DNA from: an uncultured Eggerthellaceae bacterium
Lineage (GTDB): Bacteria > Actinomycetota > Coriobacteriia > Coriobacteriales > Eggerthellaceae
Direction: 5' to 3'
DNA length: 64,000 nt
Assembly (NCBI GenBank): GCA_910589135.1
Contig: CAJUSL010000001.1
Location: forward strand, 68,058 to 132,057
Under the pieces are notes generated by a model, which did not search any database, was not told the origin of the DNA, and saw nothing but the letters and a program-made list of their open reading frames with translations. Positions 5,246 to 62,566 of this stretch are shown here, piece after piece (position 1 is the first letter of the stretch; each line of letters begins with the position of its first letter). Position numbers and translations under genes: made by a program.

Positions 5246-5250
5246 GGGGA

Positions 5251-20682: not shown

Positions 20683-20851
20683 GGCGACCACTCCTCCCCC
20701 GGGATGACGATAGCATCAACGGATGCCGTGCATAGGAGCATGGTTGCGCATATGGAAGGCGCGCGCATCCACCGCGCGTCGCTATATTGCGGCGATTCCG
20801 GCGGTATGAGGGGGAGTATTATGCGCTTACGCTTGGAGAACGCTGCCGCGC

Positions 20852-22321: not shown

Positions 22322-22349
22322 ACTTTCTCCTCCATAGCCTGCTACAGGG

Positions 22350-22367
22350 CGTATTCGCATAAATACG
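22350..22367. promoter_or_regulatory. Candidate operator palindrome in the luxR / Mo-enzyme divergent promoter region
   Basis: CGTATT-CGCATA-AATACG (6-bp arms). Two GATTCAC direct repeats lie nearby, at 22379 and 22400, 21 bp apart. Confidence 0.3.
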
Positions 22368-22471
22368 GACGTTTCCCCGATTCACGCGAACGAAGCACTG
22401 ATTCACCATGTGGTCAGCTTACAGGACGTCGTTTCTGCGCCCTGGGACTTCAAAGGAAGAAGGAGGATGCA

Positions 22472-24724: not shown

Positions 24725-24726
24725 GC

Positions 24727-25062
24727 GTGGCTGAATACGGACTGCTGATAGATTACGATTGGTGCACGGGCTGCCACACGTGCGAGGTGGCATGCCAGAT
24801 GGAGCACTCGCTTCCGCCCGACCAGTGGGGCATCAAGCTGACCGAGGTGGGCCCGTGGGAATATGCCCCCGAGAAGTGGCAGTACGCCTACATGCCCGTG
24901 CCGACCGACCAGTGCGACCTGTGCGCGCGTCGCACCGCCGAGGGAAAGCTTCCCACGTGCGTGCACCATTGCCAGGCCCAGTGCATTCATTACGGGCCGC
25001 TGGACGAGCTCGCCAAGAAGCTTCCCGGGAAGACCAAGCAAACGCTTTTCAGCCTGAGATAG
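24727..25062 (+). CDS. Small 4Fe-4S ferredoxin-like electron-transfer subunit (111 aa)
   Basis: CTGCHTCEVAC (Cx2Cx2Cx3C) plus CDLC...C..HHC...C. Nine Cys in total, enough for about two clusters. Paralog at 57632..57958. Confidence 0.85.
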   Translation: MAEYGLLIDYDWCTGCHTCEVACQMEHSLPPDQWGIKLTEVGPWEYAPEKWQYAYMPVPTDQCDLCARRTAEGKLPTCVHHCQAQCIHYGPLDELAKKLPGKTKQTLFSLR

Positions 25063-25072
25063 GGGGCGTCAT

Positions 25073-26311
25073 ATGAGCAAGGTGAAGAAAATAATGCCGT
25101 GGGTGCCGGTGTGGGCGATCATCGTCGCGAGCATTCTGGTGAGCTTCGAATACGGCAAGGTGCCGCCAGCTGCTCCCAGCATGATCGAGGTGCTGGGCAT
25201 CTCGTATACGACGCAGGGGCTGCTGATGACGATGTTCTCCATCGCGGCCGTCGTGATGGGGCTCATCGGCGGCACGATGATCGACCGGCTGGGCGCGCGC
25301 AAGGTCGTGAGCGTTGCGCTTGCGCTGACCATCGTCGGCAACGTGGTCGGGCTGTTCTGGACGAGCGATGCGGGGCTGCTGGTCACGCGCGTGCTGGAAG
25401 GCTTGGGCTACGGCGCCACGATGACCGCCGGGCCCGGCGTGATCGCCGCGTGGTACGAGCCCAAGAAGCGCGGCCTTGCCAACGGCGTGTGGGGCGCGAA
25501 CGTGGGCGTCGGCATGATGATCTGCACGATGTCGGCCACTCCCATCATGGAGTCCAGCGGCTGGTCGGGCATGTGGATCTTCGGCCTGGTGGGCGCCATC
25601 CTGGCGTTTCTGCTGGTCGCCATCTTCGTGTGCATGCCGCCCGAGGGTGAGCGTAAGGATGCGATGGACCTGCCGCCGGCCACCGACGCCGACAAGAGCC
25701 ATGGCGTGCTGTGGGGATACCTCGCCCCGCTGCCCGTGCTCGCCGCGGTGATGTTCTTCCTGGTGGGCGGTGCGACCGACGCGTTCAACGCGTTCACCAT
25801 CACGTACCTGAACCTGGAGCTCGGCGAGGCCGAGAGCATGGCGAACATGACCGCCACCATCGCCTCGTTCGGCCTGCTGGTCGGCGCGGTCATCATGGGC
25901 TTCCTGTTCGCGAAGGTGCGCGACAAGGGCATGGTGCTGCTGGTCAACATCGCGCTGTGCGCCATTGCTCTGTTCGCGTGGTTCAACCTTGACCTGTCGC
26001 CCGAGATGATGTGCGTGGTCGGGTTCTTCGTGGGCTGCTTCCTTGGCGCTGCGCCGACCGCGTTCTTCGCAGTGGCGCCCATGGCCGCCCGCTCGCCTGG
26101 GACCATCGGCGCCGCCACCGGCATGGTGGTGCTGGGCCAGAATGCCGGCACGCTGTTGATTCCCACGGTTGTGGGCATGATTCTGGACGCTGCCGGATAC
26201 GGCGCCGCTGCCATGTTCATGGGCGGCATCAGCGTGGCGGCCGCGCTCATCTGCATTGCGTTCCGCGCGCTGTACAAGAAGCATGTCGCGGTCACCCCGG
26301 AGGCGCAGTAG
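25073..26311 (+). CDS. MFS transporter (cassette 1)
   Basis: 412 aa, about 12 TM segments, contiguous with the two oxidoreductase subunits. Confidence 0.9.
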   Translation: MSKVKKIMPWVPVWAIIVASILVSFEYGKVPPAAPSMIEVLGISYTTQGLLMTMFSIAAVVMGLIGGTMIDRLGARKVVSVALALTIVGNVVGLFWTSDAGLLVTRVLEGLGYGATMTAGPGVIAAWYEPKKRGLANGVWGANVGVGMMICTMSATPIMESSGWSGMWIFGLVGAILAFLLVAIFVCMPPEGERKDAMDLPPATDADKSHGVLWGYLAPLPVLAAVMFFLVGGATDAFNAFTITYLNLELGEAESMANMTATIASFGLLVGAVIMGFLFAKVRDKGMVLLVNIALCAIALFAWFNLDLSPEMMCVVGFFVGCFLGAAPTAFFAVAPMAARSPGTIGAATGMVVLGQNAGTLLIPTVVGMILDAAGYGAAAMFMGGISVAAALICIAFRALYKKHVAVTPEAQ

Positions 26312-49574: not shown

Positions 49575-50036
49575 ATGAAACCTGCAAGCAAGATAACGGC
49601 TCGTCGCGTAGAGGTCTTTCCGGGAAGGCTGCGGATCTGGGTCGCCCTTGCAGCTGATGCGCCGCGGCAGGCGAGCGAAGGCATGGTTGCTGCCGCGTAC
49701 GAGGCCTATCCTACGCTGCCGCTGCATTCGTGCATCAACTCGAAGGGTCCCACGTTCGGCGACGTTGCGGTTGGCACGTCGGTCCCGCACCTGTTGGAGC
49801 ACGTGGTCATCGCGGAGCAGGTTCGGCTTGCTGCAGAGGCCGAGCGGCTGCAGGCCGATGCTGCGGAGGCCGAACGCCCGCGCAACGCGACATTCGTCGG
49901 CACGACCGAGTGGTGCGAAGGCGGCGCCGCCAGAGGAGAGGCCATCGTGGAGGTCAGCTTCGTCGATGACCTTCAGGCGCTCGAGGCACTAAGCCGGGCG
50001 CTTGTGTTTCTTGGCGCGACGCTTGATCGCCTCTAA
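49575..50036 (+). CDS. Hypothetical protein (153 aa)
   Basis: ORF with host-like codon usage and a TACAAT box upstream. No recognisable motif. Confidence 0.45.
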   Translation: MKPASKITARRVEVFPGRLRIWVALAADAPRQASEGMVAAAYEAYPTLPLHSCINSKGPTFGDVAVGTSVPHLLEHVVIAEQVRLAAEAERLQADAAEAERPRNATFVGTTEWCEGGAARGEAIVEVSFVDDLQALEALSRALVFLGATLDRL

Positions 50037-50312
50037 CGCCGCACCAGGCTGGCCGCTTTGCTGTGGCGATGCGGCATTGCGCCGACGTCGCACCGAGTGT
50101 GGCGTCATGTGCCATTAGGTGCGCTCCAATGCCGTATCCTAATGTCGCAGTCGGTGGTTTGCAACGTCCTGAACTGGTGATTGCAACCGACGGGTGCCAT
50201 GGTTTTCTGGATTTTGCTCCCGCTGGTTGGTAGTCTGAAACCAGCCGGAGGCATAGTCTTTCGATGCCGGCTTTGAAAGAACCAAACGCATTCCATCGAG
50301 AGAGGCATCGAC

Positions 50313-51362
50313 GTGAGCTTTAGAGACAATCTTTTGCATTTGCGCGCGACCAACAACATGACCCAGGAGCAATTGGCAATGCTGCTAGGAGTGAGCAGGC
50401 AGTCCGTGACCAAGTGGGAATCCGAGAAATCCTACCCCGAGATGGACAAGCTGCTGAAACTTTGCCAGGCGTTCGACTGCACCCTGGACGAGCTTGTGCA
50501 AGGCGACCTGACCGGTCGCGAGCCCATGCCGCAGGCAGCGGCGAGCGGGCAGGGGCCGGCCGTCGACGTGTTCGACTACGACCGCTTCATGCGTCGCTTC
50601 GCGACCAGGCTGTCGCTCGGCATACTTGCGGCCATTGCCGGCGTGGGCATCGCGATCCCGTTCCTGGCGGCGAGCGACCCCAGCGCGAATCCCTATTTCG
50701 GGCTGTCGGAAAATCTTGCAGCCGCGTTGGGGATGTTCGTCCTGTTCGCCGGCGTGGGCATCTGCCTTGCGCTGATCATTCCCGCTGCCATGGCGCATTC
50801 TGCGTTCGTGAAGGCGCACCCGTTCATCGAGGACTTCTACACCTCCGAGGACAGGGCGAAGGCCCGCTCGTCGTTCGCCTATCAACTTGTGGGCGGAATC
50901 GGAATCATATTCCTGGGCATATGCGTGGTTGTCCTGTTCGGTGAAACCGCCGAGGGCAGCCTGGTGGGCGTCACGGCCATGATGTTGTGCATCGCGGTGG
51001 GCGTGTTCCTCATCGTGCACGGGGCCATGACGCTGGGACGCACGAACATCGCGGAATACAACGCCAACGCGGCGGAATACATGGAAGTTTCCGACATCGA
51101 GGCCGCGAAGGTTCCCGACGAAGCCAAACAGGAGATGCTCAAGACGAAGAGGCTCGACCAGAAAGTCGGCGCGGTTTGCGGCACCATCATGATCCTGGCG
51201 ACGGCCATCGCGCTGCTGATGCTGTTCTGGCCGATGGCCACCGGCACGGTGGAGGACTACACATCGGGCATGATCGCGTTCTTCTGGCTGCCCTGGCCGA
51301 TCGGTGGCCTGCTGTGCGGCATTGCGGCGATGCTGATCAAGGCCTTCGGGAAGGCCGAGTAG
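50313..51362 (+). CDS. XRE-family HTH regulator fused to a multi-TM membrane domain
   Basis: HTH_3 domain LRATNNMTQEQLAMLLGVSRQSVTKWESEKSYPEMDKLLKLCQAFDCTLDELV, followed by about 5 TM helices. Confidence 0.8.
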   Translation: MSFRDNLLHLRATNNMTQEQLAMLLGVSRQSVTKWESEKSYPEMDKLLKLCQAFDCTLDELVQGDLTGREPMPQAAASGQGPAVDVFDYDRFMRRFATRLSLGILAAIAGVGIAIPFLAASDPSANPYFGLSENLAAALGMFVLFAGVGICLALIIPAAMAHSAFVKAHPFIEDFYTSEDRAKARSSFAYQLVGGIGIIFLGICVVVLFGETAEGSLVGVTAMMLCIAVGVFLIVHGAMTLGRTNIAEYNANAAEYMEVSDIEAAKVPDEAKQEMLKTKRLDQKVGAVCGTIMILATAIALLMLFWPMATGTVEDYTSGMIAFFWLPWPIGGLLCGIAAMLIKAFGKAE

Positions 51363-51514
51363 GAAGAAGTGCGGCCGCGCGGCAGCTGCGGGCGCCAGGC
51401 GCGGCAGGGCAGTCACACGACGGCTGAGGCCGGTGGGTGCGGCAGGGGGGCCGACGGGTGCGGCAGGGCAGCCACGCGGCATCGCACTCGCCAGATTGCG
51501 TCAATGGAATTTTC

Positions 51515-51541
51515 TTGCACGCTGGCTTATTCGGGTATACT
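51515..51541 (+). promoter_or_regulatory. Candidate promoter of tRNA-Thr
   Basis: TTGCAC-N15-TATACT, with the -10 box ending 9 nt before the mature tRNA 5' end. The spacer is shorter than ideal. Confidence 0.3.
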
Positions 51542-51550
51542 TGCACGTGC

Positions 51551-51626
51551 GCCGATGTGGCTCAGTTGGTAGAGCAACGCACTCGTAATGCGTAGGTCAG
51601 CGGTTCGAGTCCGCTCATCGGCTCCA
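51551..51626 (+). tRNA. tRNA-Thr (anticodon CGT), CCA encoded
   Basis: Manual cloverleaf: acceptor GCCGATG/CATCGGC, D arm GCTC-AGTTGGTA-GAGC, anticodon arm ACGCA-CTCGTAA-TGCGT, T arm AGCGG-TTCGAGT-CCGCT, discriminator T, then CCA. Confidence 0.9.
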
Positions 51627-51637
51627 TTGAATTGCCA

Positions 51638-51666
51638 GGCCGGATGCTGTTGCGTCTGGCCTTTTT
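51638..51666 (+). terminator. Rho-independent terminator after tRNA-Thr
   Basis: GGCCGGATGC-TGTT-GCGTCTGGCC (10-bp stem including two G-U pairs), followed by TTTTT. Confidence 0.6.
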
Positions 51667-51712
51667 CATGTCCTCCAGGCGCTTACATTGTTGTCACAAA
51701 TGCTGCACCTCT

Positions 51713-53044
51713 GGGTTATGTTTCAAAAAGTGTGCTCTCTAGGGTTATTCACTGCCTGTATTCGGTAGGCATGTGGAACTCGCTCCAGACGATTCCTGAT
51801 CCGTATTCCTCAGGTGCTCCGTCGTCTTGCTTGTGTTTGTTGGAAGCTGATGCGAACAGCCCCTCCACTTGGTCGTCTGTCGGCATGATGCGCAGGATCT
51901 CAGCTGGGGGCAGAGGGCTCTCAGTGTGCATGTAGCACCACCAGAAGATCGCCTTGATGCGATGGAGGAGAGGCAGGCCCCTGTGCATCCTGAGCATCTC
52001 GCGGATCCGCGCATTCCTGCTCTCGATGACGTTGTTGGTGGATGCCCACGTCCCACCACGTTCCTCTGCCATCTCCACGAACGTGAACAGCTGCCCGGTT
52101 TGCACGAGCGCGTTGAGGGAGCGTCTGGCCTTCCTCAGTCGCTCGTGGGTGTAGAGGCGCTTGCCATCCTTTATCGTGAACTCGCGCAAGAAGCGCTCCC
52201 ACCTCATGCACCAATCGTTGTATCCGACAAGCCATGAAGCCGCCGTCGCCGCATCCTTGGCGTCTTTGAGATTGTTGGCGATCCCTAAAAGCTCGCGCCC
52301 GCATTCGAGCTTGGGGTTGAGCGTCGTATATCGTTTGACCTGGCTCGCGGCGTGGAAGGTGCAACGTTGGATGCGAGTCGCCGGCCAGATCGCGCCAGCT
52401 GCCTTGGCAAGCCCCCGAGCTCCATCTGAGACGAGCATGGCAGGCGCGGGCACCCGCAGCATGAGAGCCGCCCAAGCCTCAGAGCATTCGCTTTGCGCCA
52501 GATGCCAAGCAAGGATGTGCTCCTTGCTGCAAGCGATGAGCACGACTGCATCTCGCTTGAGCCAGATGCCATCGAGGAATACGACATCCGATACCTCGCC
52601 GGCATAGGGTGCGATAGGCCATAGATTCCATATCCATGAGGTCCTGCGCCAAAACGTCGTCCTGCTGACCTCCTTGTCGGCTATGGAATCCTTGGAGAAG
52701 AGCCAGTCGAGGAAATAGGCGAGATCCTTGGCACGAGAGTCGATCTTGCGCACAGCTGATGAGCCACAAGCTGCACAACGCCATCGCTGCCGTCCAGAAG
52801 ATGTGCTGCCATTCCTTCTCATCCTGGCACCACAGAGCGTGCATCTTGGATTATTCACTCCACTATCCTGACCTCAGACAACTTTTCTTCCGAAAATCAT
52901 TGTCTGAGCAGGGGTGTCAAGAGGAAACAGAGCACATTTTTTGAAACACCTAGAAGTTGGAGCGAACCAACTTCTAAGCACTATTTATCAATACTGAACT
53001 GGGATAACCGTCCTCAAAAGAGCACACTTTTTGAAACATAACCC
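51713..53044 (-). mobile_element. Intact insertion sequence, IS256 superfamily / IS1249-like (1332 bp)
   Basis: Perfect 26-bp terminal inverted repeats GGGTTATGTTTCAAAAAGTGTGCTCT (51713-51738, complement at 53019-53044). 8-bp direct target duplication GCACCTCT (51705-51712 and 53045-53052). One transposase ORF. GC looks lower than the flanks. Confidence 0.85.
51749..52858 (-). CDS. IS1249-family (IS256-like, MULE/DDE) transposase with an N-terminal zinc finger
   Basis: 369 aa. N-terminal CTLCGARM...RWRCAACG zinc finger, then a DDE/MULE-like core (VFLDGIWL...MLVSDGARGL...TNNVIESRNARIREM). Confidence 0.85.
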   Translation of the reverse strand: MNNPRCTLCGARMRRNGSTSSGRQRWRCAACGSSAVRKIDSRAKDLAYFLDWLFSKDSIADKEVSRTTFWRRTSWIWNLWPIAPYAGEVSDVVFLDGIWLKRDAVVLIACSKEHILAWHLAQSECSEAWAALMLRVPAPAMLVSDGARGLAKAAGAIWPATRIQRCTFHAASQVKRYTTLNPKLECGRELLGIANNLKDAKDAATAASWLVGYNDWCMRWERFLREFTIKDGKRLYTHERLRKARRSLNALVQTGQLFTFVEMAEERGGTWASTNNVIESRNARIREMLRMHRGLPLLHRIKAIFWWCYMHTESPLPPAEILRIMPTDDQVEGLFASASNKHKQDDGAPEEYGSGIVWSEFHMPTEYRQ

Positions 53045-53100
53045 GCACCTCTGGTTCCCGCACGCTATTCTGTGAACGTTTCGCGAGCGGCAAGGAGAAG

Positions 53101-54129
53101 GTGCACGCAGTGGAGGCAGTCCGGAACTTCCTGACGAACTACAGCGACAATTTCAGGGTGGCGCTCTTCATGTGGCCGCTCTTCGCCGTCGCGCTGACGT
53201 TGCCTATCCTTGCCTATCTCTATCACAGGGACGGGCGGCTGAAGGCCACGGGCGTCGCGGCCACGTATTTGGCGGTTCTCTATGCCCTCGGCATCGTCTG
53301 CTTCACGCTGTACCCACTGCCCGGCGGCGATGCGGGTCCGGGCATCACCTATGGCGTGCCGCCGCAGTGGAATCCGTTCGGCTTCGTGGGCGACATTGCC
53401 AAGGACGGCCTGCGTGCCGTTTTCCAGCTGGCGTTCAACGTCGTGTTCTTCCTGCCGCTGGGCTTCATCTGCGGAAGGCTTCTGCGCATGCGCTTCGTCA
53501 CAGCGGTGGTCTTTGCGTTCGTGGTGTCGCTGCTCATCGAGACGGCGCAGTTTACGGGGCTGTTCGGCGTGTATCCGCACGCGTATCGATGCTGCGACGT
53601 GGATGACCTGATCTGCAACACGTTGGGCGGCGTGCTCGGGTGGCTGTGTGCCCACGCGCTGGGCGGCCCGGATGCGGACGAAACCAGCCGCCCGGCGGTC
53701 TGCACGCGCCCGGGCTTCGTCCGACGGTGCGTCGCGTTCTGGATCGACATCACGCTGGTTCAGGTGGCGGCCATCATGCCGTGGCTGATCGTCGACCTCG
53801 CATGCGAGCTTATCGCGTCACAGCCGTTCTGCCTCCCCGGGCTCAACCAGGGGCAGACGATGGTGGTATGCGCGCTGGCGCTGGGGCTTGCCGCGTTCGC
53901 TGTTGCGGAGGTCGTCGTCCCTTGGCGACACGGGGGCTCGACGCCCGGCGGCATGTTCGTGCGCATGACGTTCGAGTCGCACGAAAGGACGCTCGGCAAT
54001 CGCGTGCTCTTCTACGCGTTGCGCATTCTCACCATCGCGGCCACGTTCGTGATTCCGTTCGCCATGGTTCCCGTGCTGGGCATTTTCTACCTGGCGAAGA
54101 GATGCATGCCCTATGACCAGGTGCCCTAA
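53101..54129 (+). CDS. VanZ-like domain fused to an RDD-family membrane domain
   Basis: VanZ block NVVFFLPLGFICG...LLIETAQF...DVDDLICNTLGGVLGW. The C-terminal half (FVRRCVAFWIDITLVQ..., about 3 TM segments) is RDD-like. Confidence 0.75.
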   Translation: MHAVEAVRNFLTNYSDNFRVALFMWPLFAVALTLPILAYLYHRDGRLKATGVAATYLAVLYALGIVCFTLYPLPGGDAGPGITYGVPPQWNPFGFVGDIAKDGLRAVFQLAFNVVFFLPLGFICGRLLRMRFVTAVVFAFVVSLLIETAQFTGLFGVYPHAYRCCDVDDLICNTLGGVLGWLCAHALGGPDADETSRPAVCTRPGFVRRCVAFWIDITLVQVAAIMPWLIVDLACELIASQPFCLPGLNQGQTMVVCALALGLAAFAVAEVVVPWRHGGSTPGGMFVRMTFESHERTLGNRVLFYALRILTIAATFVIPFAMVPVLGIFYLAKRCMPYDQVP

Positions 54130-54162
54130 GGCCTTGGACGGGACCGCGCGAAGGCGGCAGGC

Positions 54163-55071
54163 CTAGCTCGCCTGATTCCGACGCTCTGCGAGCACCTCTT
54201 GCGCGATGTGCGCCCATCTGCGAATGGCGTCGGTGCCGTTCGAGCGTTTCCAGATCGCCCCATACATCGTCTTGATGTTCAAGCCCTCGAGTGGAATCAG
54301 GGTCATGCTGCCCTGGTAGTAGTCCTTCAGATGGAGGAAGGAGATTCCCACGGTGTCGTTCGCCTCCACGAGTATGAACAGACTGTTGATGTCGCGGACC
54401 TGCTCCTTGATGTCGATCTGGTTGTTGCCAGGGTCCAAGTACTCGATGATGGGTTCGTTGTCCGACGTGAAGAATGTCGATGCGGGAAGCGAGACGGTGT
54501 GGCCCTTGAGGTCGGCGGGCAGCAGCGATTTCTTTCGGCTTAAGGCGTCGTCGTTGTTCACCACGGCTCGGTATTCGTCTTCGAAGAACGGGACAATCTC
54601 GTGCGACGCGTCTCTGACTGCATGCGGAATGAACGAGGCTGCGATGTCTACCTTGTCCTCCTCTAGCACCCGCAGGACGTCGTTGAACTCGTAAGTGACA
54701 TAGTCCACGCCGATGTTGGGGAACTCTTCGCGGAACTGCGACTGGATCTTTGGCAGGTCGTGGGCGATCATTCCTTGAAGGTAGCCGACGCGGAGCAACC
54801 CCTCGGTCTTTCTTCGGAAAGCCTGCATATCGTCCATCATGCGGTCGTAATCCGCCACGACCTGTTGCGCCCCGCGAAGAAAAACCTCGCCTGCCTTCGT
54901 GAGTTTGACGGAGCGTTTGGTTCGTTGGAAGAGCGCGAAGCCGAGCTTGCTTTCGACGGCCTTGACGTGCTTCGACAGTGCGGGTTGGGCGACGAACATG
55001 TTCTGGGACGTCTTGGTGAAGTTGAGCGTGACGGCAAGGTCGACGCATTCCCTCAGCAGCTCTATGCGCAT
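54163..55071 (-). CDS. LysR-family transcriptional regulator
   Basis: N-terminal HTH MRIELLRECVDLAVTLNFTKTSQNMFVAQPALSKHVKAVESKLGFALFQRT plus a LysR substrate-binding domain. Divergent from Mo cassette 3. Confidence 0.9.
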   Translation of the reverse strand: MRIELLRECVDLAVTLNFTKTSQNMFVAQPALSKHVKAVESKLGFALFQRTKRSVKLTKAGEVFLRGAQQVVADYDRMMDDMQAFRRKTEGLLRVGYLQGMIAHDLPKIQSQFREEFPNIGVDYVTYEFNDVLRVLEEDKVDIAASFIPHAVRDASHEIVPFFEDEYRAVVNNDDALSRKKSLLPADLKGHTVSLPASTFFTSDNEPIIEYLDPGNNQIDIKEQVRDINSLFILVEANDTVGISFLHLKDYYQGSMTLIPLEGLNIKTMYGAIWKRSNGTDAIRRWAHIAQEVLAERRNQAS

Positions 55072-55185
55072 GGCGCCTCCTGGCTCGAGACCGTGGCCTT
55101 CCGCTGGGTAACCGCGAAGCGGATGCCTTCATTTCAGCACAACGCTCCGGGTCCGTCCACCTGGCCGGAGGCTTTCTACGTGCGC

Positions 55186-55204
55186 TTATTCCGCGGTGGA
55201 ATAA
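55186..55204. promoter_or_regulatory. Candidate LysR box (T-N11-A palindrome)
   Basis: TTATTCC-GCGGT-GGAATAA (7-bp arms) in the lysR / Mo-enzyme divergent region. It contains TTCCGCGGTGGAA, which fits T-N11-A. Confidence 0.35.
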
Positions 55205-55287
55205 AAATCGCTGAAACGCTATTTCACTTCGTCTCGGCCAATGCCGACACTTGGTGTATCGAGACCTTCACGAGAGAGAGGGGACAC

Positions 55288-57621
55288 ATGTCAGAAAAAG
55301 ACGTCATGGAGGAGAGCTCTGGCCTTGGCAAATCGGTCAAGTCAGTAGGGGTGGTCCAGAGCATCGCCGACAACGACCACGCGACCGATAGGCGCGAATC
55401 TTACACTTGGGAGGAGGACGGCTATACCGTCGTGCGCGGCAATGCACGTACGGCCCCCGGCTGTCACGACAACTGCGGCGTGCTCATGTACGTCAAGGAT
55501 GGCAGGGTAGTCAAGGTGGAGGGCGACGAAGAGGATCCATACAACCAGGGTCGGCTTTGCCTGCGATGCTTGACGCTTCCCGAAACGCTTTACCATGAGG
55601 ACAGGCAACTGTATCCGATGAAGCGTGCCCGCGAGGACCGCGGCAAGGACAAGTGGGAGCGCATCAGCTGGGACGAAGCCTACGACATGCTCGAGCAGGG
55701 CATCAAGGACGTCCAGGCCAGGCATGGCAAGGAGAGCGTGTACGTCGTTTGCGGAACCGGCCGTGACGTCATCGTCTACGAGACCATTCTTGCGGCGATG
55801 CTTGGGACGCCCAACCAGGCAATGGGCTTCTTCCCCGGCCAAAGCTGTTACATTCCTCGCACGTTCAGCACCAACCTGAAAGGCGGCGTCTTCTTCGAGG
55901 GCGACTACTCGCAGTTCTTCCCCGATCGTTACGACAACCCGAAATGGCGCAGGCCCGATTACGTGTTCGTGTGGGGCAATAACCCCGTAGTCGCGAACTC
56001 GGACGGCAACCTTGGCCATTGGATCGTCGAGTGCATGAAGCGCGGAAGCAAGCTGATTACGGCCGATCCAAAACTCACCTGGTGCGCTGCGCATTCCGAG
56101 TATTTCTTACAGGTGCGTCCTGGAACTGACGCGGCCCTTGCTCTTGCGTTGGCGCACGTCATTATCGAGGAGGACCTCTACGACCATGAATTCGTGGAGA
56201 ATTGGACCTACGGTTTCGAGGAATATGCCGAAGGCGTCGAGGAATGGACGCCGGAGCGCGTGGCTGGCATTTGCGACATCGATGTGGACCTCATCTACGA
56301 CGTGGCGCGGGCCATTGGCGGAGCAGAGTCGTGGGCGCTGCAGTGGGGCGTTGCTCTGGACCATACCTCCGAAGGCTTCTACTCGGGCATGGCGTGCTGG
56401 GATTTGGTCGGTCTTACCGGCATGTTCGATCATCCGGGCGGCATGGTGGCCGGCGTCGCGCCCTTCAGCATCGGCTTCCCATGGATTCCGGCCGCGACCG
56501 ACGTCGACTGGATTCCTGCAGACCTGACCATGAAGCCTGCCATCACCTACGAAAGCTACGCTGGGCTCAACACGATGGGCATGCCTGCCTCCGACGCCAT
56601 CCTCGAAGGCATGGAGGAAGGGCGCGAGGACGCCATCAAGTGCTGTTGGTTCTATGCGACGAACGTGCTTGCCAACGAAGGCGCCGTTCCCGAGCGTATC
56701 CTTAAGGCGGTCCAGGACACCTGCGAGTTCAACATCGTGTCCGATATTTGGATGACGCCTACGGCCTACGCTTGCGCCGACCTCTTCCTTCCCGTTACCT
56801 GCTTCCCTGAGAGAAGCGGCATTTCCGGGCATCAGCCTTATCGTACCGGTGCCATCGTCAAGGCCGTAGAGCCGGCGGGAGAGGCGCGTTCAGACCAGAC
56901 CGTGCTCATCGAGGTAGGGAAGCGCTTCTGTGGCGAAGACGTCGTGCCGTTCAAGACGGACGAGGAGCTCTACGACTTCCTCATTGCCCGCGGAGGCAGC
57001 GGCATGGATTACGCCACCGTCCGCGACTATGGCTGGGTGTATCCCGAGGTGGAGTACTACCGCTACAAGACCGGAGGCCTGCGTGCCGACGGCAAGCCTG
57101 GCTTCAACACCACCACGATGAAGTACGAGTTCGACTGCGTCCCGTTGCAGTACATGGGCGTGGCATCGCTGGCGTCGTACGAAGAGCCTCCCGAGAGCCC
57201 CGTCAGCACGCCTGAGCTTGCCAAGGAGTATCCGCTGATTTTGACCACTGGCGCACGCAACTGGGGCTTTTTCCATTCGGAGGGCCGTCAGATTCCGCAC
57301 TTGCGGCGCGTGCATCCCGATCCAGAGGTGAAGCTGCATCCTGCCGACGCCGCCCGGTATGGCATTGCGGAGGGCGATTGGGTGTTGATCGAAAACACCT
57401 ACGGGTCTTGCAAGCAGAAGGCTCATATCACGCCACGCATCAAGGAAGGCGTCGTGTCCGCCGACCATGGCTGGTGGTTTCCCGAGCGCCAGCGCGATGA
57501 CAGCTACTTCGGGACGTTAGAGAGCAACATCAACAACTGCCTGTCCATCAAGTCGGGAAAAATTGGCCTTGGCAACTCGTACAAGTCCGGTCTTTGCCGC
57601 GTAAGCAAAGTAGAAGGGTAG
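55288..57621 (+). CDS. Molybdopterin (bis-PGD) oxidoreductase catalytic subunit, no Tat signal (cassette 3, paralog of 22472..24724)
   Basis: 777 aa. APGCHDNCGVLMY...GRLCLRC Cys group. It shares the identical string KRAREDRGKDKWERISWDEAY with cassette 1. ATG 55288 is preceded by GAGAGGGGA. Confidence 0.9.
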   Translation: MSEKDVMEESSGLGKSVKSVGVVQSIADNDHATDRRESYTWEEDGYTVVRGNARTAPGCHDNCGVLMYVKDGRVVKVEGDEEDPYNQGRLCLRCLTLPETLYHEDRQLYPMKRAREDRGKDKWERISWDEAYDMLEQGIKDVQARHGKESVYVVCGTGRDVIVYETILAAMLGTPNQAMGFFPGQSCYIPRTFSTNLKGGVFFEGDYSQFFPDRYDNPKWRRPDYVFVWGNNPVVANSDGNLGHWIVECMKRGSKLITADPKLTWCAAHSEYFLQVRPGTDAALALALAHVIIEEDLYDHEFVENWTYGFEEYAEGVEEWTPERVAGICDIDVDLIYDVARAIGGAESWALQWGVALDHTSEGFYSGMACWDLVGLTGMFDHPGGMVAGVAPFSIGFPWIPAATDVDWIPADLTMKPAITYESYAGLNTMGMPASDAILEGMEEGREDAIKCCWFYATNVLANEGAVPERILKAVQDTCEFNIVSDIWMTPTAYACADLFLPVTCFPERSGISGHQPYRTGAIVKAVEPAGEARSDQTVLIEVGKRFCGEDVVPFKTDEELYDFLIARGGSGMDYATVRDYGWVYPEVEYYRYKTGGLRADGKPGFNTTTMKYEFDCVPLQYMGVASLASYEEPPESPVSTPELAKEYPLILTTGARNWGFFHSEGRQIPHLRRVHPDPEVKLHPADAARYGIAEGDWVLIENTYGSCKQKAHITPRIKEGVVSADHGWWFPERQRDDSYFGTLESNINNCLSIKSGKIGLGNSYKSGLCRVSKVEG

Positions 57622-57631
57622 GGACGAGGAA

Positions 57632-57958
57632 ATGACAAAAGGACTGCTCATCGACTACAACTACTGCACGGGTTGCCACACCTGCGAGGTGGCATGCCAG
57701 ATGGAAAACCAGCTTCCGCCCGACAAGTTCGGCATCGAGCTGAAGCAGATCGGACCCGATCAAATCGACGACCGCACGTGGCAGTACGACTTCTTCCCGG
57801 TTCCTACCGACAGATGCAATCTGTGCGCAGGACGCGTGGCGAAGGGAAAGCTTCCCAGCTGCGTCAAGCACTGCCAGGCCGGATGCATGCACTATGGCGA
57901 CATCGAAGACCTCGCCGCTCAAATCACCGGATCGAAGTTCGCGTTGTTCTCCAAGTAG
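57632..57958 (+). CDS. Small 4Fe-4S ferredoxin-like subunit (108 aa), paralog of 24727..25062
   Basis: CTGCHTCEVAC and CNLC...C..KHC...C, the same 9-Cys pattern as the cassette 1 subunit. Confidence 0.85.
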   Translation: MTKGLLIDYNYCTGCHTCEVACQMENQLPPDKFGIELKQIGPDQIDDRTWQYDFFPVPTDRCNLCAGRVAKGKLPSCVKHCQAGCMHYGDIEDLAAQITGSKFALFSK

Positions 57959-57976
57959 GAGGGAAGGGGGTCGAAC

Positions 57977-59263
57977 ATGACCAGTCAAATTGAAAGGCCT
58001 ACGGGCATCAGGGCATGGGGCGTCGCCAAAGACCAGCTGTCGCAGACCCAGCGCTGGGTGTCGATGGTTTCGATGATGATAACGGGCCTCGCCGTCGTCT
58101 TCGTCGTGATGAAGTGGAACCCGATCCTTGCCTTCGTCGGCGAGGAGCACGGCATGGGCATGGACATGATCGGCAACATTTCCGGTCTGGCGCTGTTCAT
58201 GGGATGCATCGTCTGTTTCCCGGCAGTCTGGATCATGCGGAACATCGGCGTCAAGTTCACGCTTGCGTTGGCCATGGTCATCACGGTCGTCGGTTCTGCG
58301 GCGAGGTTGTTCACCGCTGACGCAGCCGGTTTTCTTGTTGAGGGCACCGGCATGGGCATGCTGGCCGCATGCGGGCCCAATATCGTGCCGCGCCTGTTTC
58401 CGCTGCAGAAAATGGGCCTTGCCATGGGGGTGTGGTCGCAGTGGACCGTTGCGGGGCTCGTGGTTGCGGTGCTTGCCTCCCCCATCATCTTCCAGGCAAC
58501 CGGCTCGACGGCGACGATTACCTACGTAGGCATCGGCATTCTGGTGGTGGCGCTGGCGATTCATGTGGTCGCGTTCAGGCTTAACGCGGTTGACGAGAAC
58601 GTCCTCAATGCGCAAGCCGTCGAGCGCAAGGAGAAGAGCGCCATCAATCACAACTATGTCAGAGGCGGCATCATCTGCGCCTTCGCGTTCTTCGGTTACT
58701 GTTGGATTTTCGGACTTTGCCAGGGGTTCTTCCCCACGTTCCTCCAAAGCATCGGCGTAGGCATCGTGGAGTCCAACAGTCCGGCGCTTTACTCGCAGAT
58801 CCTCGTGGTGCTGTTCGGCGTGTCCGCTGGCGTGTTCTATGAGAGGTATAACCTTCGCAAGGCCTTCACCATCGGTGGCTTCATCCTCTTTGGCGGCATG
58901 GTCATCATGTCCTATGGCAGCTATGGCAACAGCGCCGTCAACATGTGGCTCTTTGGCATTGGCATTGGCCTGCTGGCTGGCATCGTGCCCGTGGCCATCA
59001 GGACCTATATCCCGGTTTTGGTCACCGACCCTCGGAAGATGGACTACGTGCTGGGCATCATGGCCTTCGTCACGAACCTGACGTTCTTCGGCAACGGTCT
59101 GTTCGGCGCTCTTATTGCGAACTGGGGCTTTTTCATGGCTGCAGTCGTGTTCTTGGGCGTGCCGCTGGTCGTTTGCATATTCCTGGTGGTCTTCTTCGTG
59201 AAGAGCGACCGCAAGATTGCGCAGGAGGACGCTTTGCAGCTGGAGGCGTCTTCCGAAGCATAG
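57977..59263 (+). CDS. MFS transporter (cassette 3)
   Basis: 428 aa, about 12 TM segments. SD GGAGGGAAGGGGG lies upstream. Confidence 0.9.
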   Translation: MTSQIERPTGIRAWGVAKDQLSQTQRWVSMVSMMITGLAVVFVVMKWNPILAFVGEEHGMGMDMIGNISGLALFMGCIVCFPAVWIMRNIGVKFTLALAMVITVVGSAARLFTADAAGFLVEGTGMGMLAACGPNIVPRLFPLQKMGLAMGVWSQWTVAGLVVAVLASPIIFQATGSTATITYVGIGILVVALAIHVVAFRLNAVDENVLNAQAVERKEKSAINHNYVRGGIICAFAFFGYCWIFGLCQGFFPTFLQSIGVGIVESNSPALYSQILVVLFGVSAGVFYERYNLRKAFTIGGFILFGGMVIMSYGSYGNSAVNMWLFGIGIGLLAGIVPVAIRTYIPVLVTDPRKMDYVLGIMAFVTNLTFFGNGLFGALIANWGFFMAAVVFLGVPLVVCIFLVVFFVKSDRKIAQEDALQLEASSEA

Positions 59264-59424
59264 AGTCCCCGACTTTCTCTCTTTCTCCCCCTAGATGCAC
59301 CTTCCGTATCCCTAGTGCAGCGGGAGATGCGATTCGTCGGAGGGGTTTTGGAAGGCCCCTCCGATCGGATTTCGAAACGCTCGATCTGCTCGCGGTTGCG
59401 ATGCTCCGAGGAAGGTATGACCAG

Positions 59425-59919
59425 ATGCCAAACACGGGCCCCATAGGATTTCAGCGCATGACAAGCCTGCTGATGAACATATTCATCGGACTTGTCCTGG
59501 GATGTGTGTTTCTGTTCCTGTCTCACGACGTGACGTCCATGGCTATGGATGAAATCGCACGCACGTTCTGCCAATCCCTCGTCATGAGCATCCCCGTCGG
59601 CTATGCCGTGGGCGACTTTCTGCCCACGATGGCTTGGGGGCAGAAGCTGGCTGCAGCGCTGCATGCCACGGGGAGGCTTGCGAGCCATTTGGTGGTGAGC
59701 CTGACGCTGGCCGTGGTCAACGTGACCGTCATACTGACGGCATGCATGTTCATCGTGATGCTTGCGAGCACCAGCGTCGGCGACGTGCTTGGCATCGTTG
59801 CCATGCTATGGGCGCCGGCCGTTGCATCCGGCTTCCTTGCAATCTTTGCGTTGCTGCCCGTTGCCCAGGGGCTGGCGACCAAAATAAGCGGCTTCGACCC
59901 TATGGCGGAAGCCGATTAG
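59425..59919 (+). CDS. Small polytopic membrane protein (164 aa, about 4 TM segments), unknown function
   Basis: ATG 59425 is preceded by GAGGAAGG. The ORF-track version (58945) overlaps the MFS gene in another frame and is rejected. Confidence 0.5.
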   Translation: MPNTGPIGFQRMTSLLMNIFIGLVLGCVFLFLSHDVTSMAMDEIARTFCQSLVMSIPVGYAVGDFLPTMAWGQKLAAALHATGRLASHLVVSLTLAVVNVTVILTACMFIVMLASTSVGDVLGIVAMLWAPAVASGFLAIFALLPVAQGLATKISGFDPMAEAD

Positions 59920-60023
59920 CCTTGCATGAAGCAGGAGACTTCGACGGCACTTTTGCAACTGAGGTGCAGCCCGCAGTCTCCGTATCTGACTCCCACGCCG
60001 ACACCTGCATGTCTGAGTGCAAG

Positions 60024-60557
60024 CTATCCCCTTGAGCGCAAGCCACCCCCTGTGCGCCTTCCCTGCAGGCAGTAGGGAAGGATGGCGCGGTAGTCCTCGA
60101 CGAGCTGCTCGAGCGACTTCGCCGCGTTCGCAGGGCTGGTCGACGGAAGGCGCGTGCACGCCAGGTGCGTCTGCACCTCGCAGTGTTTCGTGTAGAGCTC
60201 GGCCGCCTTCGCGCCGGTGCAGAACACGGCCTCGATGGGAGCGCGTGCAAACAGGCTGCCGATGTCGTTCGGCACGCAGTCGGCTATGGAGCCGTCGCTT
60301 GCGCCTTCGATGGTGCATTCCGCCAGCACGTCCCACAGCGCGATGCCGTGTCGCAGCGCCAGGTCGCGCTTCTCGTCGTTGGTGACGGGAAGCTTCTCGT
60401 CGAACAGCGCGGCCATCACCTTCCAGAAGCGGTTCTGCGGGTGCCCGTAATAGAAGCCGGTCTCGCGCGACTTGGGCGAAGGCATCGTACCCAGCATCAG
60501 CACGCGCGACCGTTCGTCGAACACGGGGCTAATGGTGTGGCGCACCTTGTTGGCCAT
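60024..60557 (-). CDS. UDG-superfamily DNA glycosylase, hypoxanthine/deoxyinosine-DNA glycosylase-like (family 6)
   Basis: VLMLGTMPSPKSRETGFYYGHPQNRFW and LPSTSPAN match my memory of family-6 UDG (TIGR04274-like) motifs. ATG 60557 has GGAGGGG upstream. Confidence 0.75.
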   Translation of the reverse strand: MANKVRHTISPVFDERSRVLMLGTMPSPKSRETGFYYGHPQNRFWKVMAALFDEKLPVTNDEKRDLALRHGIALWDVLAECTIEGASDGSIADCVPNDIGSLFARAPIEAVFCTGAKAAELYTKHCEVQTHLACTRLPSTSPANAAKSLEQLVEDYRAILPYCLQGRRTGGGLRSRG

Positions 60558-60600
60558 GCTGCTCAACGCCCCTCCGTTCCTGCCATGCCTACATGATGCA

Positions 60601-61206
60601 TCAGTCTAGCGTTTCGAGCGCGGCGACGATGGCCGAGTCGAGCGCAGGCTGCACGAGGCTCCAGTCGTGGCCGTTGCGCTTCGCTGCCTTGGCTGCAGCG
60701 AGGCAGCCGCTTATCCTGAAGATGTTGAGATAGCGCAGCTGCAGCATTTCGACGGTGGTGTCAGGGTGGCGCCTTCTGATGCTTAGCATGAGCTCGTCGA
60801 GGTTGCGGTCGACGACGCGCTCGATCAGCCTTTCCGCGATGGAATTGTCCTCAAGAAGCGGCTGGTAGGGGTTTCGCGACGCATAGAAGTGGCAGAACGG
60901 CATGCCGCGCCATTCGCGTGCCGACCTGGGCGCGCGCCTTGCTCCCGAGCACGACTCGCACATCTCTAGCGGCACGTCGCCCATCTCGTCGGTCATGTCG
61001 TCCAGGATTTCGTCCAGCACGTCGGCCAGGCTGCCGTAATGCTGGTAGAACGTGGCGCGCGTGAGGCCGGAGGTGCGGCAGATTTCGCTTACGGTGAGGT
61101 CGGCGAACCGCCTCTCCTTCAGGGCCGAAAGCAAGCATGACTTGATGGCCCTCTCGGTCGCAATCGATCGCTTGTCCTTCTTGCGCGGCTTGGTCGTCTT
61201 TTCCAT
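60601..61206 (-). CDS. TetR/AcrR-family transcriptional regulator
   Basis: N-terminal HTH FADLTVSEICRTSGLTRATFYQHYGSLADV. Divergent from the DUF262 gene pair. Confidence 0.85.
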   Translation of the reverse strand: MEKTTKPRKKDKRSIATERAIKSCLLSALKERRFADLTVSEICRTSGLTRATFYQHYGSLADVLDEILDDMTDEMGDVPLEMCESCSGARRAPRSAREWRGMPFCHFYASRNPYQPLLEDNSIAERLIERVVDRNLDELMLSIRRRHPDTTVEMLQLRYLNIFRISGCLAAAKAAKRNGHDWSLVQPALDSAIVAALETLD

Positions 61207-61453
61207 GGCATGCCTTCTCGAAGTTGCTTACATGTTTTCGCGATGTGTATGCGAAACGCGCTGCCGGAGCAGAGCCGGCTTGCTTTTCGCTTTCCTCGTG
61301 GTATGTTCGCATTATAGAAGTTCCATACAGGCTGTAAAGAAATTGCAAAACGAGAAGGGCATCGTGTGGGCATGAAGCCAGGGGCGGCGTTGGGTCGCAT
61401 CCAGCGTCGCACGTCGTCGGCGATGTCGCGAGGGTGCAGAACGGAGGCGCATC

Positions 61454-62566
61454 ATGGAAGTCGGACAGTCTTCCCTGTTGGATTTGCTGGCGAAGCAGGA
61501 CACGCGATTCGCCATTCCTGCATATCAGCGCAGGTATGCTTGGCAGCAGCGGCAGTGCGAGGAGCTGTGGCTTGACGTCCTTCGGGCGGGGCGGCGCAAC
61601 GAGCGTCACTTCTCGGGGACGATCCTGTACCAGGAGGAGCCTGGCGAGAAGGGCGTCCGCTGCCTTTCCATCGTCGACGGGCAGCAGCGCATGACCACCG
61701 TCATGCTGATGCTCGTCGCGTTGCGCAATCACCTCGCAGAGCATCCTGGCGCACTCGGCGGCTTGACTGCCGAACAGGTCGACCGCACCTTCCTTGTGGC
61801 GGACGCCGGCGGCATCCGCAGTGCTGGGCAGGGCGATGCCGATGCCGGGTGCAACGTTCCCAAGCTGCGGCTTTCCCGGCTCGACGCCGCGTCGATGGCA
61901 AAGGCAGTTGCGGGCGCGGCGCCTGACGACATTCCGTCGCGCAACCTCTCGTGCAACCTCGCGTACTTCGAGTCGTTGATGCAGGAAGACGGTTTCGATC
62001 CCGCCGTGTTCGAGCGCGGGCTGAAGAACCTGAACGTCGTCATGGCGCAAGCCGATGCAGAAGACGATGCGCAGGCGGTGTTCGAGAGCCTGAACTCGAA
62101 GGGGCTGAAGCTCAACATCGGCGACATGGTGAGAAACTACCTGCTGGCAAGCGAGGACCATGCCGAGCAGACGAGGCTCTACATCGAGTACTGGACGATG
62201 ATCGAGGGCGCCTTCGATCCCGATCCCGGCTCGCTCAAGCTGGACACGATGATCAAGGCATGGCTGTCGGTGCGTTTCACGAAGGTGCGCGCCCGCACGC
62301 CCGAGGACGTCTATTCCGCATTCAAGCGGTACTACGACGATGAGTACGCGGGCGAACTGGAGCCGGTGCTCAGCGAGCTGCGCTCATTCGCGATGGTGTG
62401 GGCGGAAAACTACCGCTATCACGCCGTGAAGAAGTTCCGCTCCATGCCGTGGGCGAAGAACGGGGCGCAGACGCTGACGTCCGGTTACGAGCTGAAGAAG
62501 GCCGACAACGAGGAATACGCCGAGCGCGTTCGCCAGGAGCTGCGCGCCATGGGCCGCGAGCTGTAG
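61454..62566 (+). CDS. DUF262 (ParB/GmrSD N-terminal-like) domain protein lacking a DUF1524 nuclease domain
   Basis: FAIPAYQRRYAW, IVDGQQRMTT and FESLNSKGLKLNIGDMVRNYLL are signature DUF262 blocks. At 370 aa it has no His-Me finger region. Confidence 0.85.
   Translation: MEVGQSSLLDLLAKQDTRFAIPAYQRRYAWQQRQCEELWLDVLRAGRRNERHFSGTILYQEEPGEKGVRCLSIVDGQQRMTTVMLMLVALRNHLAEHPGALGGLTAEQVDRTFLVADAGGIRSAGQGDADAGCNVPKLRLSRLDAASMAKAVAGAAPDDIPSRNLSCNLAYFESLMQEDGFDPAVFERGLKNLNVVMAQADAEDDAQAVFESLNSKGLKLNIGDMVRNYLLASEDHAEQTRLYIEYWTMIEGAFDPDPGSLKLDTMIKAWLSVRFTKVRARTPEDVYSAFKRYYDDEYAGELEPVLSELRSFAMVWAENYRYHAVKKFRSMPWAKNGAQTLTSGYELKKADNEEYAERVRQELRAMGREL

Follow-up and report, generated by a model that had tools for sequence, protein, structure and literature searches.

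A LysR-linked molybdenum oxidoreductase cassette, probably of the Gordonibacter-type catechol dehydroxylase kind, in an uncultured mouse-gut Eggerthellaceae bacterium

Introduction

How gut Coriobacteriia make bioactive products from dietary polyphenols, drugs and neurotransmitters is determined by catechol dehydroxylases, a family of hundreds of paralogues of which a minority have a known substrate. Coriobacteriia genomes each hold dozens of these substrate-specific, substrate-induced paralogues (PMC7028382, PMC11887054, PMC12771579), which are related to acetylene hydratase (PMC7028382). The Eggerthella-type enzymes Dadh, El Hcdh and Cadh, members of the bis-MGD superfamily, are substrate-induced proteins of ~1,000-1,200 aa that are TAT-exported, work with a four-cluster Fe-S subunit and a membrane anchor, and are thought to be respiratory (PMC7028382). 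The Gordonibacter-type cluster consists of a cytoplasmic enzyme of ~770 aa, a small 4Fe-4S protein and an MFS transporter (PMC7028382, PMC11887054, PMC12771579). Among its members, the Gordonibacter enzymes Dodh (DOPAC dehydroxylase) and Gp Hcdh (hydrocaffeic acid dehydroxylase) measure 770-788 aa, lack a TAT signal and have a small 4Fe-4S partner and an adjoining MFS gene (PMC7028382, PMC11585353). Their regulators are reported as LuxR-type proteins with 10-12 transmembrane (TM) segments; DadR, CadR and HcdR are regulators of this 10-12-TM LuxR kind that adjoin the enzyme genes. Gs Vadh is a functionally characterised Gordonibacter-type cluster that combines a two-subunit cytoplasmic enzyme with transporters and a LysR-type regulator (PMC11887054).

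Here we describe a five-gene unit, cassette 3, in a 64-kb window (the whole stretch of DNA that was analysed) from an uncultured Eggerthellaceae bacterium of the mouse gut. It belongs to the same superfamily as the Eggerthella-type enzymes, with the same proposed chemistry, but has none of their distinguishing features (TAT signal, size above 1,000 aa, four-cluster subunit, anchor). Its architecture is that of Dodh and Gp Hcdh, except that a LysR gene stands in place of a 10-12-TM LuxR gene, of which the cassette has none.

Results

Cassette 3 consists of five intact open reading frames. A LysR-type transcriptional regulator of 302 aa (54163-55071, minus strand) diverges from an enzyme operon on the plus strand. 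This starts with the catalytic subunit Mo3 (777 aa, 55288-57621), a cytoplasmic bis-MGD molybdopterin oxidoreductase, and continues with Fd3, a small electron-transfer subunit (ferredoxin) of 108 aa with nine cysteines (57632-57958), and an MFS transporter of 428 aa (57977-59263; Pfam MFS_1, 5.7e-19). The conserved fifth gene, also on the plus strand, encodes a multi-pass membrane protein of 164 aa (59425-59919). Spacing within Mo-Fd-MFS is tight: the Mo3 stop lies 10 nt from the Fd3 start and the Fd3 stop 18 nt from the MFS start, which is preceded by an AGGAGG Shine-Dalgarno sequence. The five-gene unit is kept in at least eight other contigs (L002, L027, L003, L004 and L081-L084). Against L082, dN/dS ranges from 0.03 to 0.15 across all five genes; they are under purifying selection and are therefore not pseudogenes, which contradicts the pseudogene half of one objection (a silent or pseudogene operon) that the earlier note had raised against its own proposal.

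Mo3 carries the Pfam domains Molybdop_Fe4S4 (PF04879), Molybdopterin (PF00384) and Molydop_binding (PF01568). Aligned with the first 400 residues of the reference proteins, it is 45% identical to Dodh (E 6e-109) and 40% identical to Gp Hcdh (E 1e-75). We applied the published family threshold of >30% identity and E<1e-34 to a Cldh-like enzyme (PMC7028382) to these N-terminal 400 residues of Dodh and Gp Hcdh, and by similarity, domain content and size (777 aa against ~750-790 aa) Mo3 falls within the Gordonibacter-type catechol dehydroxylases. The motifs SCYxPR and PMKR...RGKDKW...WDEA are found in Mo3, Dodh and Gp Hcdh alike, and Mo3 retains the N-terminal Fe-S cysteine ligands that Gp Hcdh, in the sequence given in its supplement, lacks. 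The enzyme is cytoplasmic: the first 70 aa of Mo3 contain no RR motif of a TAT signal, neither Mo3 nor Fd3 has a hydrophobic segment or TAT motif, and the cassette holds no NrfD- or DmsC-like anchor gene, the 164-aa protein being without similarity to known anchors. The ATG at 55288 is preceded by a Shine-Dalgarno sequence, AGAGGGG. A longer upstream start, giving the 842-aa product P0001 of one source, was rejected; it would cross the divergent promoter and lacks the Shine-Dalgarno sequence seen at 55288. Mo3 is 94% identical to its orthologue in L082 (dN/dS 0.033) and 70-71% identical to those in L002 and L027.

LysR genes are the dominant neighbours throughout the Mo3 clade. Gs Vadh is similarly arranged but is not an orthologue: a search with its qPCR primers gave no match among the 80 loci closest to Mo3, two of which come from Gordonibacter sp. 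28C, so the LysR-linked locus L007 of that strain is not Gs Vadh. The primers of Cldh, (+)-Eldh1/2 and Gp Hcdh likewise found no match in these 80 loci. Gs Vadh further differs from cassette 3 in having a known substrate, and its published description mentions no 164-aa membrane protein.

Fd3 matches the Pfam 4Fe-4S families Fer4_11, Fer4_2, Fer4_9 and Fer4, with only Fer4_11 above its curated cutoff (27.2 against 26.2 bits), and weakly resembles DmsB-, TtrB- and HmcB-type subunits in NCBIfam. Its nine cysteines are predicted to bind two [4Fe-4S] clusters. The MFS protein is 84-88% identical in L002, L027 and L082 and is presumed to import the substrate or export the product.

The window holds a related cassette 1, of the same family and gene order, in which a LuxR gene (20852-22360) is followed by Mo1 (22472-24724), a ferredoxin (24727-25062) and an MFS gene (25073-26311). 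The earlier note had reported that subunit order and cysteine patterns agree, and they do: both cassettes read Mo-Fd-MFS, both catalytic subunits have C-x3-C...C-x2-C, and the nine ferredoxin cysteines align exactly with a shift of one position (12, 15, 18, 22, 62, 65, 77, 81 and 85 versus 13, 16, 19, 23, 63, 66, 78, 82 and 86). It was equally correct in finding no counterpart of the 164-aa protein in cassette 1 and different types of regulator. The cassette-1 regulator is a membrane LuxR with many hydrophobic segments and a GerE domain at residues 441-496, the only sequence of its kind in the window; cassette 3 has a LysR and no membrane LuxR. The N-terminal extension of Mo3, put at 50 aa, amounts to ~23 aa when the two proteins are aligned, and their lengths (777 and 750 aa) differ by 27 aa. 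The string described as 21 identical residues is indeed identical but is 23 aa long, PMKRAREDRGKDKWERISWDEAY (55615-55683 in cassette 3, 22733-22801 in cassette 1), and belongs to a family-wide motif (consensus PmKR.redRGkdkwerisWDEAy over 95 homologues) that is not specific to these cassettes. The 69 bases that encode the string differ at nine positions, in seven synonymous codons; these synonymous differences and the spread of the motif across the family speak against gene conversion. Judged from the sequences, the shared peptide reflects conservation and neither gene conversion nor recent duplication.

Identity is 46% between the catalytic subunits and 61% between the ferredoxins, while the MFS proteins belong to different subfamilies and align at only 28% over ~95 residues, so that the cassettes are not whole-operon duplicates. 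Mo1 has orthologues of 59-66% identity in L037, L073, L026 and Gordonibacter or Ellagibacter loci, and a neighbour-joining tree places Mo3 and Mo1 in separate deep clades. Because each of these 46%-identical proteins has closer orthologues in other genomes, no recent duplication took place; with the tree and the MFS comparison both against a recent duplication of the whole operon, the sequences make the cassettes deep paralogues. The earlier scenario of a duplication with a regulator swap in this genome is not supported, though its broader idea, that paralogous cassettes under different regulators serve different small molecules, fits the published picture of the family. A simple dosage duplicate, the other objection raised in the earlier note, would call for near-identical enzymes, from which Mo3 and Mo1 are far removed.

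The regulator has an N-terminal HTH_1 domain (3e-15) and a LysR_substrate domain (5.5e-21), and reaches no NCBIfam equivalog at cutoff. It is 77% identical in L082 (dN/dS 0.12) but merely 34-35% identical in L002 and L027, where the cassettes are otherwise orthologous. The divergent intergenic region of 216 bp contains a 19-bp dyad, TTATTCC-N5-GGAATAA (TTATTCCGCGGTGGAATAA, 55186-55204), in which 7-bp arms flank a spacer of 5 nt and a T-N11-A is embedded; its centre lies 93 bp upstream of the Mo3 ATG. The palindrome is thus present as described before, but by itself it is within chance expectation: a palindrome of equal quality arises in 12% of shuffles of the region (1.6% with the spacer fixed at 5), and comparable ones occur at ~0.26 per 216 bp over the whole window. 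L082 and L083 preserve the arms (TTATTCC / GGAATA) but differ at four of the five spacer bases; the palindrome is absent in L002 and L027, the loci with the diverged LysR. We regard the dyad as a candidate LysR recognition site. A phylogenetic footprint with L082 and L083 reveals two conserved plus-strand blocks within 55213-55264, GAAACGCTATTTCACTT (55213-55229) and GCCGACACTTG.TGTA.CGAGA (55243-55264), possibly an activation site or the core promoter of the enzyme operon. A sigma-70 consensus scan of 53900-60700 returned no promoter.

Two adjacent stem-loops are predicted by minimum-free-energy (MFE) folding at 59297-59368 (plus strand), in the 161-nt gap 3' of the MFS gene. One has an 18-bp stem (59334-59368); the z-score of the whole gap is only -1.7. 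By eye, each orthologue shows a GC hairpin and then a T-rich tail in the corresponding position after the MFS gene, with one compensatory change. RNAalifold on the gap between the MFS and 164-aa genes did not recover the local hairpins, the alignment being poor, and a consensus terminator scan did not call the post-MFS hairpin, whose T-tail is weak. From their position and fold, the stem-loops are probably a terminator or attenuator.

Neither Pfam nor NCBIfam gave a hit for the 164-aa protein. Its AlphaFold model is all-helical (pLDDT 79), and a PDB fold search with this model gave no significant match. The gene always lies 3' of the MFS gene in the eight contigs listed above, has a dN/dS of 0.15 against L082, and belongs to a family of 67 clusters among 1.84 billion representatives. 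DUF2798 (PF11391) is matched weakly by three of 11 close homologues (best E 0.0076) and not by the window protein; P0194, a remote member of the family, passes the cutoff of 23.5 bits with 31. The family is rare and uncharacterised, and these matches suggest that it is remotely DUF2798-like.

Discussion

Cassette 3 probably belongs to the published Gordonibacter-type catechol dehydroxylase modules, with a catabolic or detoxifying role and substrate-inducible expression. The MFS transporter would admit an aromatic small molecule, in all likelihood a catechol or polyphenol metabolite of dietary or host origin. In the cytoplasm, the 777-aa enzyme would transform it reductively at its Mo-bis-MGD centre, with removal of a phenolic hydroxyl the likeliest outcome. 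Electrons would be relayed to the active centre by the two [4Fe-4S] clusters of Fd3 together with the N-terminal [4Fe-4S] cluster of Mo3. The LysR protein may bind the dyad at 55186-55204 and activate the Mo-Fd-MFS operon in response to its ligand. As a conserved accessory of the sub-clade, the 164-aa membrane protein would probably be related to transport; read-through or a promoter of its own may account for its expression.

A conventional respiratory or periplasmic reductase or formate dehydrogenase of the DMSO reductase family (DmsA, PhsA, TtrA or FdhF-like) would account for the partial NCBIfam matches of Mo3 (Fdh-alpha 253, dmsA_ynfE 225 and PhsA 193 bits) and for the weak likeness of Fd3 to TtrB and DmsB. 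The curated cutoffs of those three models are 666, 778 and 694 bits, however, far above the Mo3 scores, and the cassette lacks the TAT signal and the NrfD- or DmsC-type anchor; its ferredoxin has two clusters, not four. The best structural relative is moreover acetylene hydratase of Pelobacter acetylenicus (2e7z, 1.2e-64, residues 58-736), with FdhF behind at 1e-50, and we regard a conventional reductase as very improbable and effectively refuted. That 2e7z is the closest solved structure would equally suit a non-redox hydratase of the acetylene hydratase type. In the HMMER alignment, though, the Asp that follows the Fe-S cysteine of acetylene hydratase (SCDINC), which we take to be the catalytic Asp13, is replaced by His in Mo3 (GCHDNC; His60), Mo1 (CHLGC) and Dodh (CHNGC), and the region round the metal-ligand Cys aligns only with gaps. 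Cassette 3 also has a ferredoxin partner, whereas acetylene hydratase is not known to have a dedicated one; a hydratase is the least probable of the activities considered here.

A third reading keeps Mo3 in the acetylene-hydratase-related clade but gives it a non-catechol substrate, for another dehydroxylation, another reduction or a redox-neutral reaction. The Mo3 clade has no characterised member and extends outside Coriobacteriia to Sporomusa (55% identity; L012 and L014), and the MFS and extra membrane protein set cassette 3 apart from cassette 1. Of the hundreds of enzymes in the family, only about a dozen have been tested, and other reductive chemistry is therefore possible. The authors of the family survey themselves cautioned that true catechol dehydroxylases make up only part of what it captured (PMC7028382). 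Against this, all Gordonibacter-type members tested so far dehydroxylate catechols (PMC11887054, PMC12771579), and the identity of Mo3 to the two characterised dehydroxylases Dodh and Gp Hcdh equals that between the two (40% over the first 400 aa). Mo3 and Dodh also have both the SCYxPR and the C-H-x-x-C motif in common, and the ferredoxin partner favours redox chemistry. On balance a non-catechol substrate seems unlikely; if true, it would make 'catechol dehydroxylase' a misnomer for the LysR-linked Mo3 clade.

As a probable catechol dehydroxylase module, cassette 3 is an ordinary added member of a described family and leaves the current understanding of that family unchanged. It adds an uncharacterised LysR-linked sub-clade with a candidate operator and a conserved extra membrane protein, two features that make it tractable for regulator-guided substrate discovery. 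We also entertain, as a speculative and unlikely extension, that the 164-aa protein is an unrecognised functional component of cytoplasmic catechol dehydroxylase systems, which might pair obligatorily with the MFS importer, export the product or form a membrane connection to the electron donor, and that the Mo3 clade may act on an unassigned substrate class. The cassette-3 sub-clade is a mouse-gut one, with relatives in the human-gut MAG UMGS650.

Cassette 3 belongs to the catechol dehydroxylase family

Cassette 3 consists of five intact genes. A LysR-type regulator (54163-55071, minus strand; Pfam HTH_1 and LysR_substrate) is separated by a 216 bp divergent intergenic region from Mo3, a 777-aa molybdopterin oxidoreductase (55288-57621, plus strand; Molybdop_Fe4S4, Molybdopterin and Molydop_binding). 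On the same strand follow a 108-aa 4Fe-4S protein (57632-57958), an MFS transporter (57977-59263) and, after a gap of 161 nt, a hydrophobic 164-aa protein without Pfam or NCBIfam match (59425-59919). Spacers of only 10 and 18 nt separate the Mo3, ferredoxin and MFS genes, each preceded by a Shine-Dalgarno sequence. In the mouse-gut MAG MGBC165564 ('uncultured Eggerthellaceae bacterium'), one contig carries an identical Mo3 gene (locus L001). Relative to the homologous locus L082, purifying selection acts on each of the five genes (dN/dS 0.03-0.15), so the cassette is not a pseudogene, which the earlier note had named among the findings that would refute its reading.

Among solved structures, acetylene hydratase (2e7z, 1.2e-64) was the best match to Mo3, with formate dehydrogenases and polysulfide or thiosulfate reductases behind it, and no NCBIfam equivalog came near its cutoff. 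This situation is described directly by the catechol dehydroxylase literature: in gut Coriobacteriia these enzymes make up a bis-MGD clade nearest to acetylene hydratase, with a 'Gordonibacter-type' subgroup of smaller, presumably cytoplasmic enzymes that carry no TAT signal and whose genes adjoin those of a small 4Fe-4S protein and MFS transporters (PMC7028382; PMC11887054; PMC12771579). Mo3 itself lacks both a twin-arginine motif and hydrophobic segments. Against the N-terminal 400 residues of two characterised enzymes (Table S1 of PMC11585353), Mo3 was 45% identical to the DOPAC dehydroxylase Dodh (E 6e-109) and 40% identical to the hydrocaffeic acid dehydroxylase Gp Hcdh (E 1e-75), which share 40% identity with each other. 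Of the characterised enzymes that could be compared, by published primers or by part of their protein sequence, none lies in the Mo3 clade. Cassette 3 is a new, uncharacterised member of a known, actively studied family; the earlier note described it correctly, with several details overstated.

Mo3, its paralogue Mo1 from cassette 1, Dodh and Gp Hcdh have an SCYxPR motif in common. It sits about where acetylene hydratase has the metal-ligand cysteine, an equivalence that is only probable because the HMMER alignment is gapped there. In acetylene hydratase, the Fe-S cysteine is followed by an aspartate, which is catalytic, whereas Mo3, Mo1 and Dodh have a histidine instead. Gp Hcdh, which lies outside the window, lacks the N-terminal Fe-S cysteine ligands, with PPGSHPVGYG and GRVNAMN at the sites of C-H-x-x-C and C-x-x-C in Mo3, Mo1 and Dodh (Table S1, PMC11585353), so the proximal cluster is not universal within the family.

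The regulator difference between cassettes 3 and 1 is old

Cassette 3 and cassette 1 (LuxR 20852-22360, Mo1 22472-24724, ferredoxin 24727-25062, MFS 25073-26311) had been read as a duplication with regulator swapping. Paralogy was borne out for the catalytic subunits (46% identity across 750 residues, C-x3-C...C-x2-C pattern in register) and the ferredoxins (61% identity, nine of nine cysteines in register), but not for the MFS genes, whose products could be aligned at 28% only over about 95 residues; the operon was therefore not copied as a block. Mo3 and Mo1 are also far too divergent for a simple dosage duplicate. The peptide reported as identical in both does exist, but has 23 residues (PMKRAREDRGKDKWERISWDEAY) rather than 21. 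At the DNA level, 9 of 69 bases differ, in seven synonymous codons, and the motif is close to invariant in 95 homologues, so the identity comes from structural constraint and not from recent common ancestry. The N-terminal extension of Mo3, put at 50 aa, shrank to about 23 residues by alignment (total length 777 versus 750 aa), and Mo3-clade relatives have N-termini of similar or greater length.

When 95 catalytic subunits of related loci were placed in an NJ tree, Mo3 and Mo1 fell in separate deep clades, commonly neighboured by LysR in the Mo3 clade and by membrane LuxR in the Mo1 clade, with exceptions in both. Each paralogue has far closer relatives elsewhere: for Mo3, 94% identity in L082-L084, 70-71% in L002 and L027 and 61-63% in L003, L004 and L081; for Mo1, 59-66% in L037, L073, L026 and Gordonibacter or Ellagibacter loci. 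Duplication with regulator swapping thus dates far back in the family and did not take place in this genome. Clusters of this kind usually have LuxR regulators with 10-12 TM segments (PMC9734109), as in cassette 1, whereas cassette 3 has LysR; with a precedent in the Gs Vadh cluster of Gordonibacter sp. (PMC11887054), LysR is not new for the family either.

Regulators nevertheless appear to turn over within Mo3-type cassettes. Compared with cassette 3, loci L002 (LysR 4248-5132) and L027 (LysR 4841-5725) are 84-85% identical in the MFS transporter and 70-71% in the enzyme but only 34-35% in LysR, which suggests that the regulator was replaced or has diverged very fast. The intergenic dyad also differs in these otherwise orthologous cassettes. 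Enzyme and ferredoxin pairs with 55% identity to Mo3 occur in Sporomusa sp. KB1 and Sporomusa acidovorans (L012, L014; Negativicutes), so the Mo3 clade is not confined to Coriobacteriia.

Cassette 1 (19405-26311) contains two MFS genes. The regulator of this cassette is 502 aa long, has a GerE domain at its C-terminus and about 10-12 hydrophobic segments, and fits the published family of 10-12-TM LuxR proteins. Mo1 clusters at 59-60% identity with loci of Gordonibacter and Ellagibacter, genera known for ellagic acid metabolism. A third molybdopterin oxidoreductase (841-aa ORF, 34902-37427), presumably 'cassette 2', shares only 29% identity with Mo3 across some 417 residues and is far more distant within the family.

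A candidate operator in the divergent promoter

The palindrome noted between LysR and Mo3, TTATTCC-N5-GGAATAA (55186-55204), is present and contains T-N11-A, but when the intergenic region was shuffled, 12% of the shuffles contained an equally good one. In L082 and L083 (LysR 77% identical), where this region is about 69% identical overall, the dyad arms persist (TTATTCC / GGAATA) and the spacer differs at four of its five bases; further conserved blocks lie at 55213-55229 and 55243-55264. Such a pattern is expected of a protein-binding dyad, though the statistical support for this candidate operator is modest. Loci with an unrelated LysR have other dyads at the same position: TAATCC-N7-GGATTA in L019 and L020 (palindrome scan), and ATGC-N7-GCAT in L002 and L027 (by eye in the printed sequences). 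The dyad centre lies 93 bp 5' of the Mo3 ATG, which would be compatible with a LysR site near -65. A sigma-70 scan found no promoter.

The fifth gene and the genomic surroundings

The 164-aa protein is the sole element of cassette 3 without precedent in the published cluster descriptions consulted. It is predicted to be all-helical and membrane-embedded (model pLDDT 79), with strictly conserved polar residues in its helices (D35, R46, the GYAVGDF motif, H88, N99, C107, W129 and Q148); a PDB structural search gave no match. The family is very small, with 13 clusters in a word search and 67 among 1.84 billion representatives. One remote member scored above the threshold of Pfam DUF2798, for which we know of no function. 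The gene is under purifying selection (dN/dS 0.15) and lies directly 3' of MFS in Mo-Fd-MFS cassettes, with LysR nearby, in all loci with visible context (L002, L027, L003, L004 and L081-L084). A transport-related accessory is the most economical guess.

The preceding gap (59264-59424) contains stem-loops, so expression of the gene may rely on read-through or on a promoter of its own. In every orthologous cassette, a GC-rich hairpin with a T-rich tail lies right 3' of the MFS stop (L002 9303-9404, L027 9898-10003, L082 6583-6749, L081 6905-7000), with a compensatory change from T:A to C:G between L082 and L002/L027. The window has a degraded first hairpin, followed by a second stem of 18 bp. 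This structure is probably a terminator or attenuator between the operon and the 164-aa gene.

G+C falls to 0.59-0.60 at 50001-60000, compared with 0.63-0.68 for most of the window, and cassette 3 may have been acquired horizontally together with its neighbours. The genes beside the cassette (window 60024-62566; L082 654-10085) encode a deoxyinosine DNA glycosylase (UDG family), a TetR-like regulator and presumed GmrSD_N-domain proteins, this domain having been detected on the L082 and L083 genes. They also flank the cassette in those two loci, but with the glycosylase on the opposite side, which indicates local rearrangement. Upstream, the LysR gene adjoins that of a 342-aa multi-pass membrane protein with a weak VanZ-like match (53101-54129), which is 99% conserved in L001.
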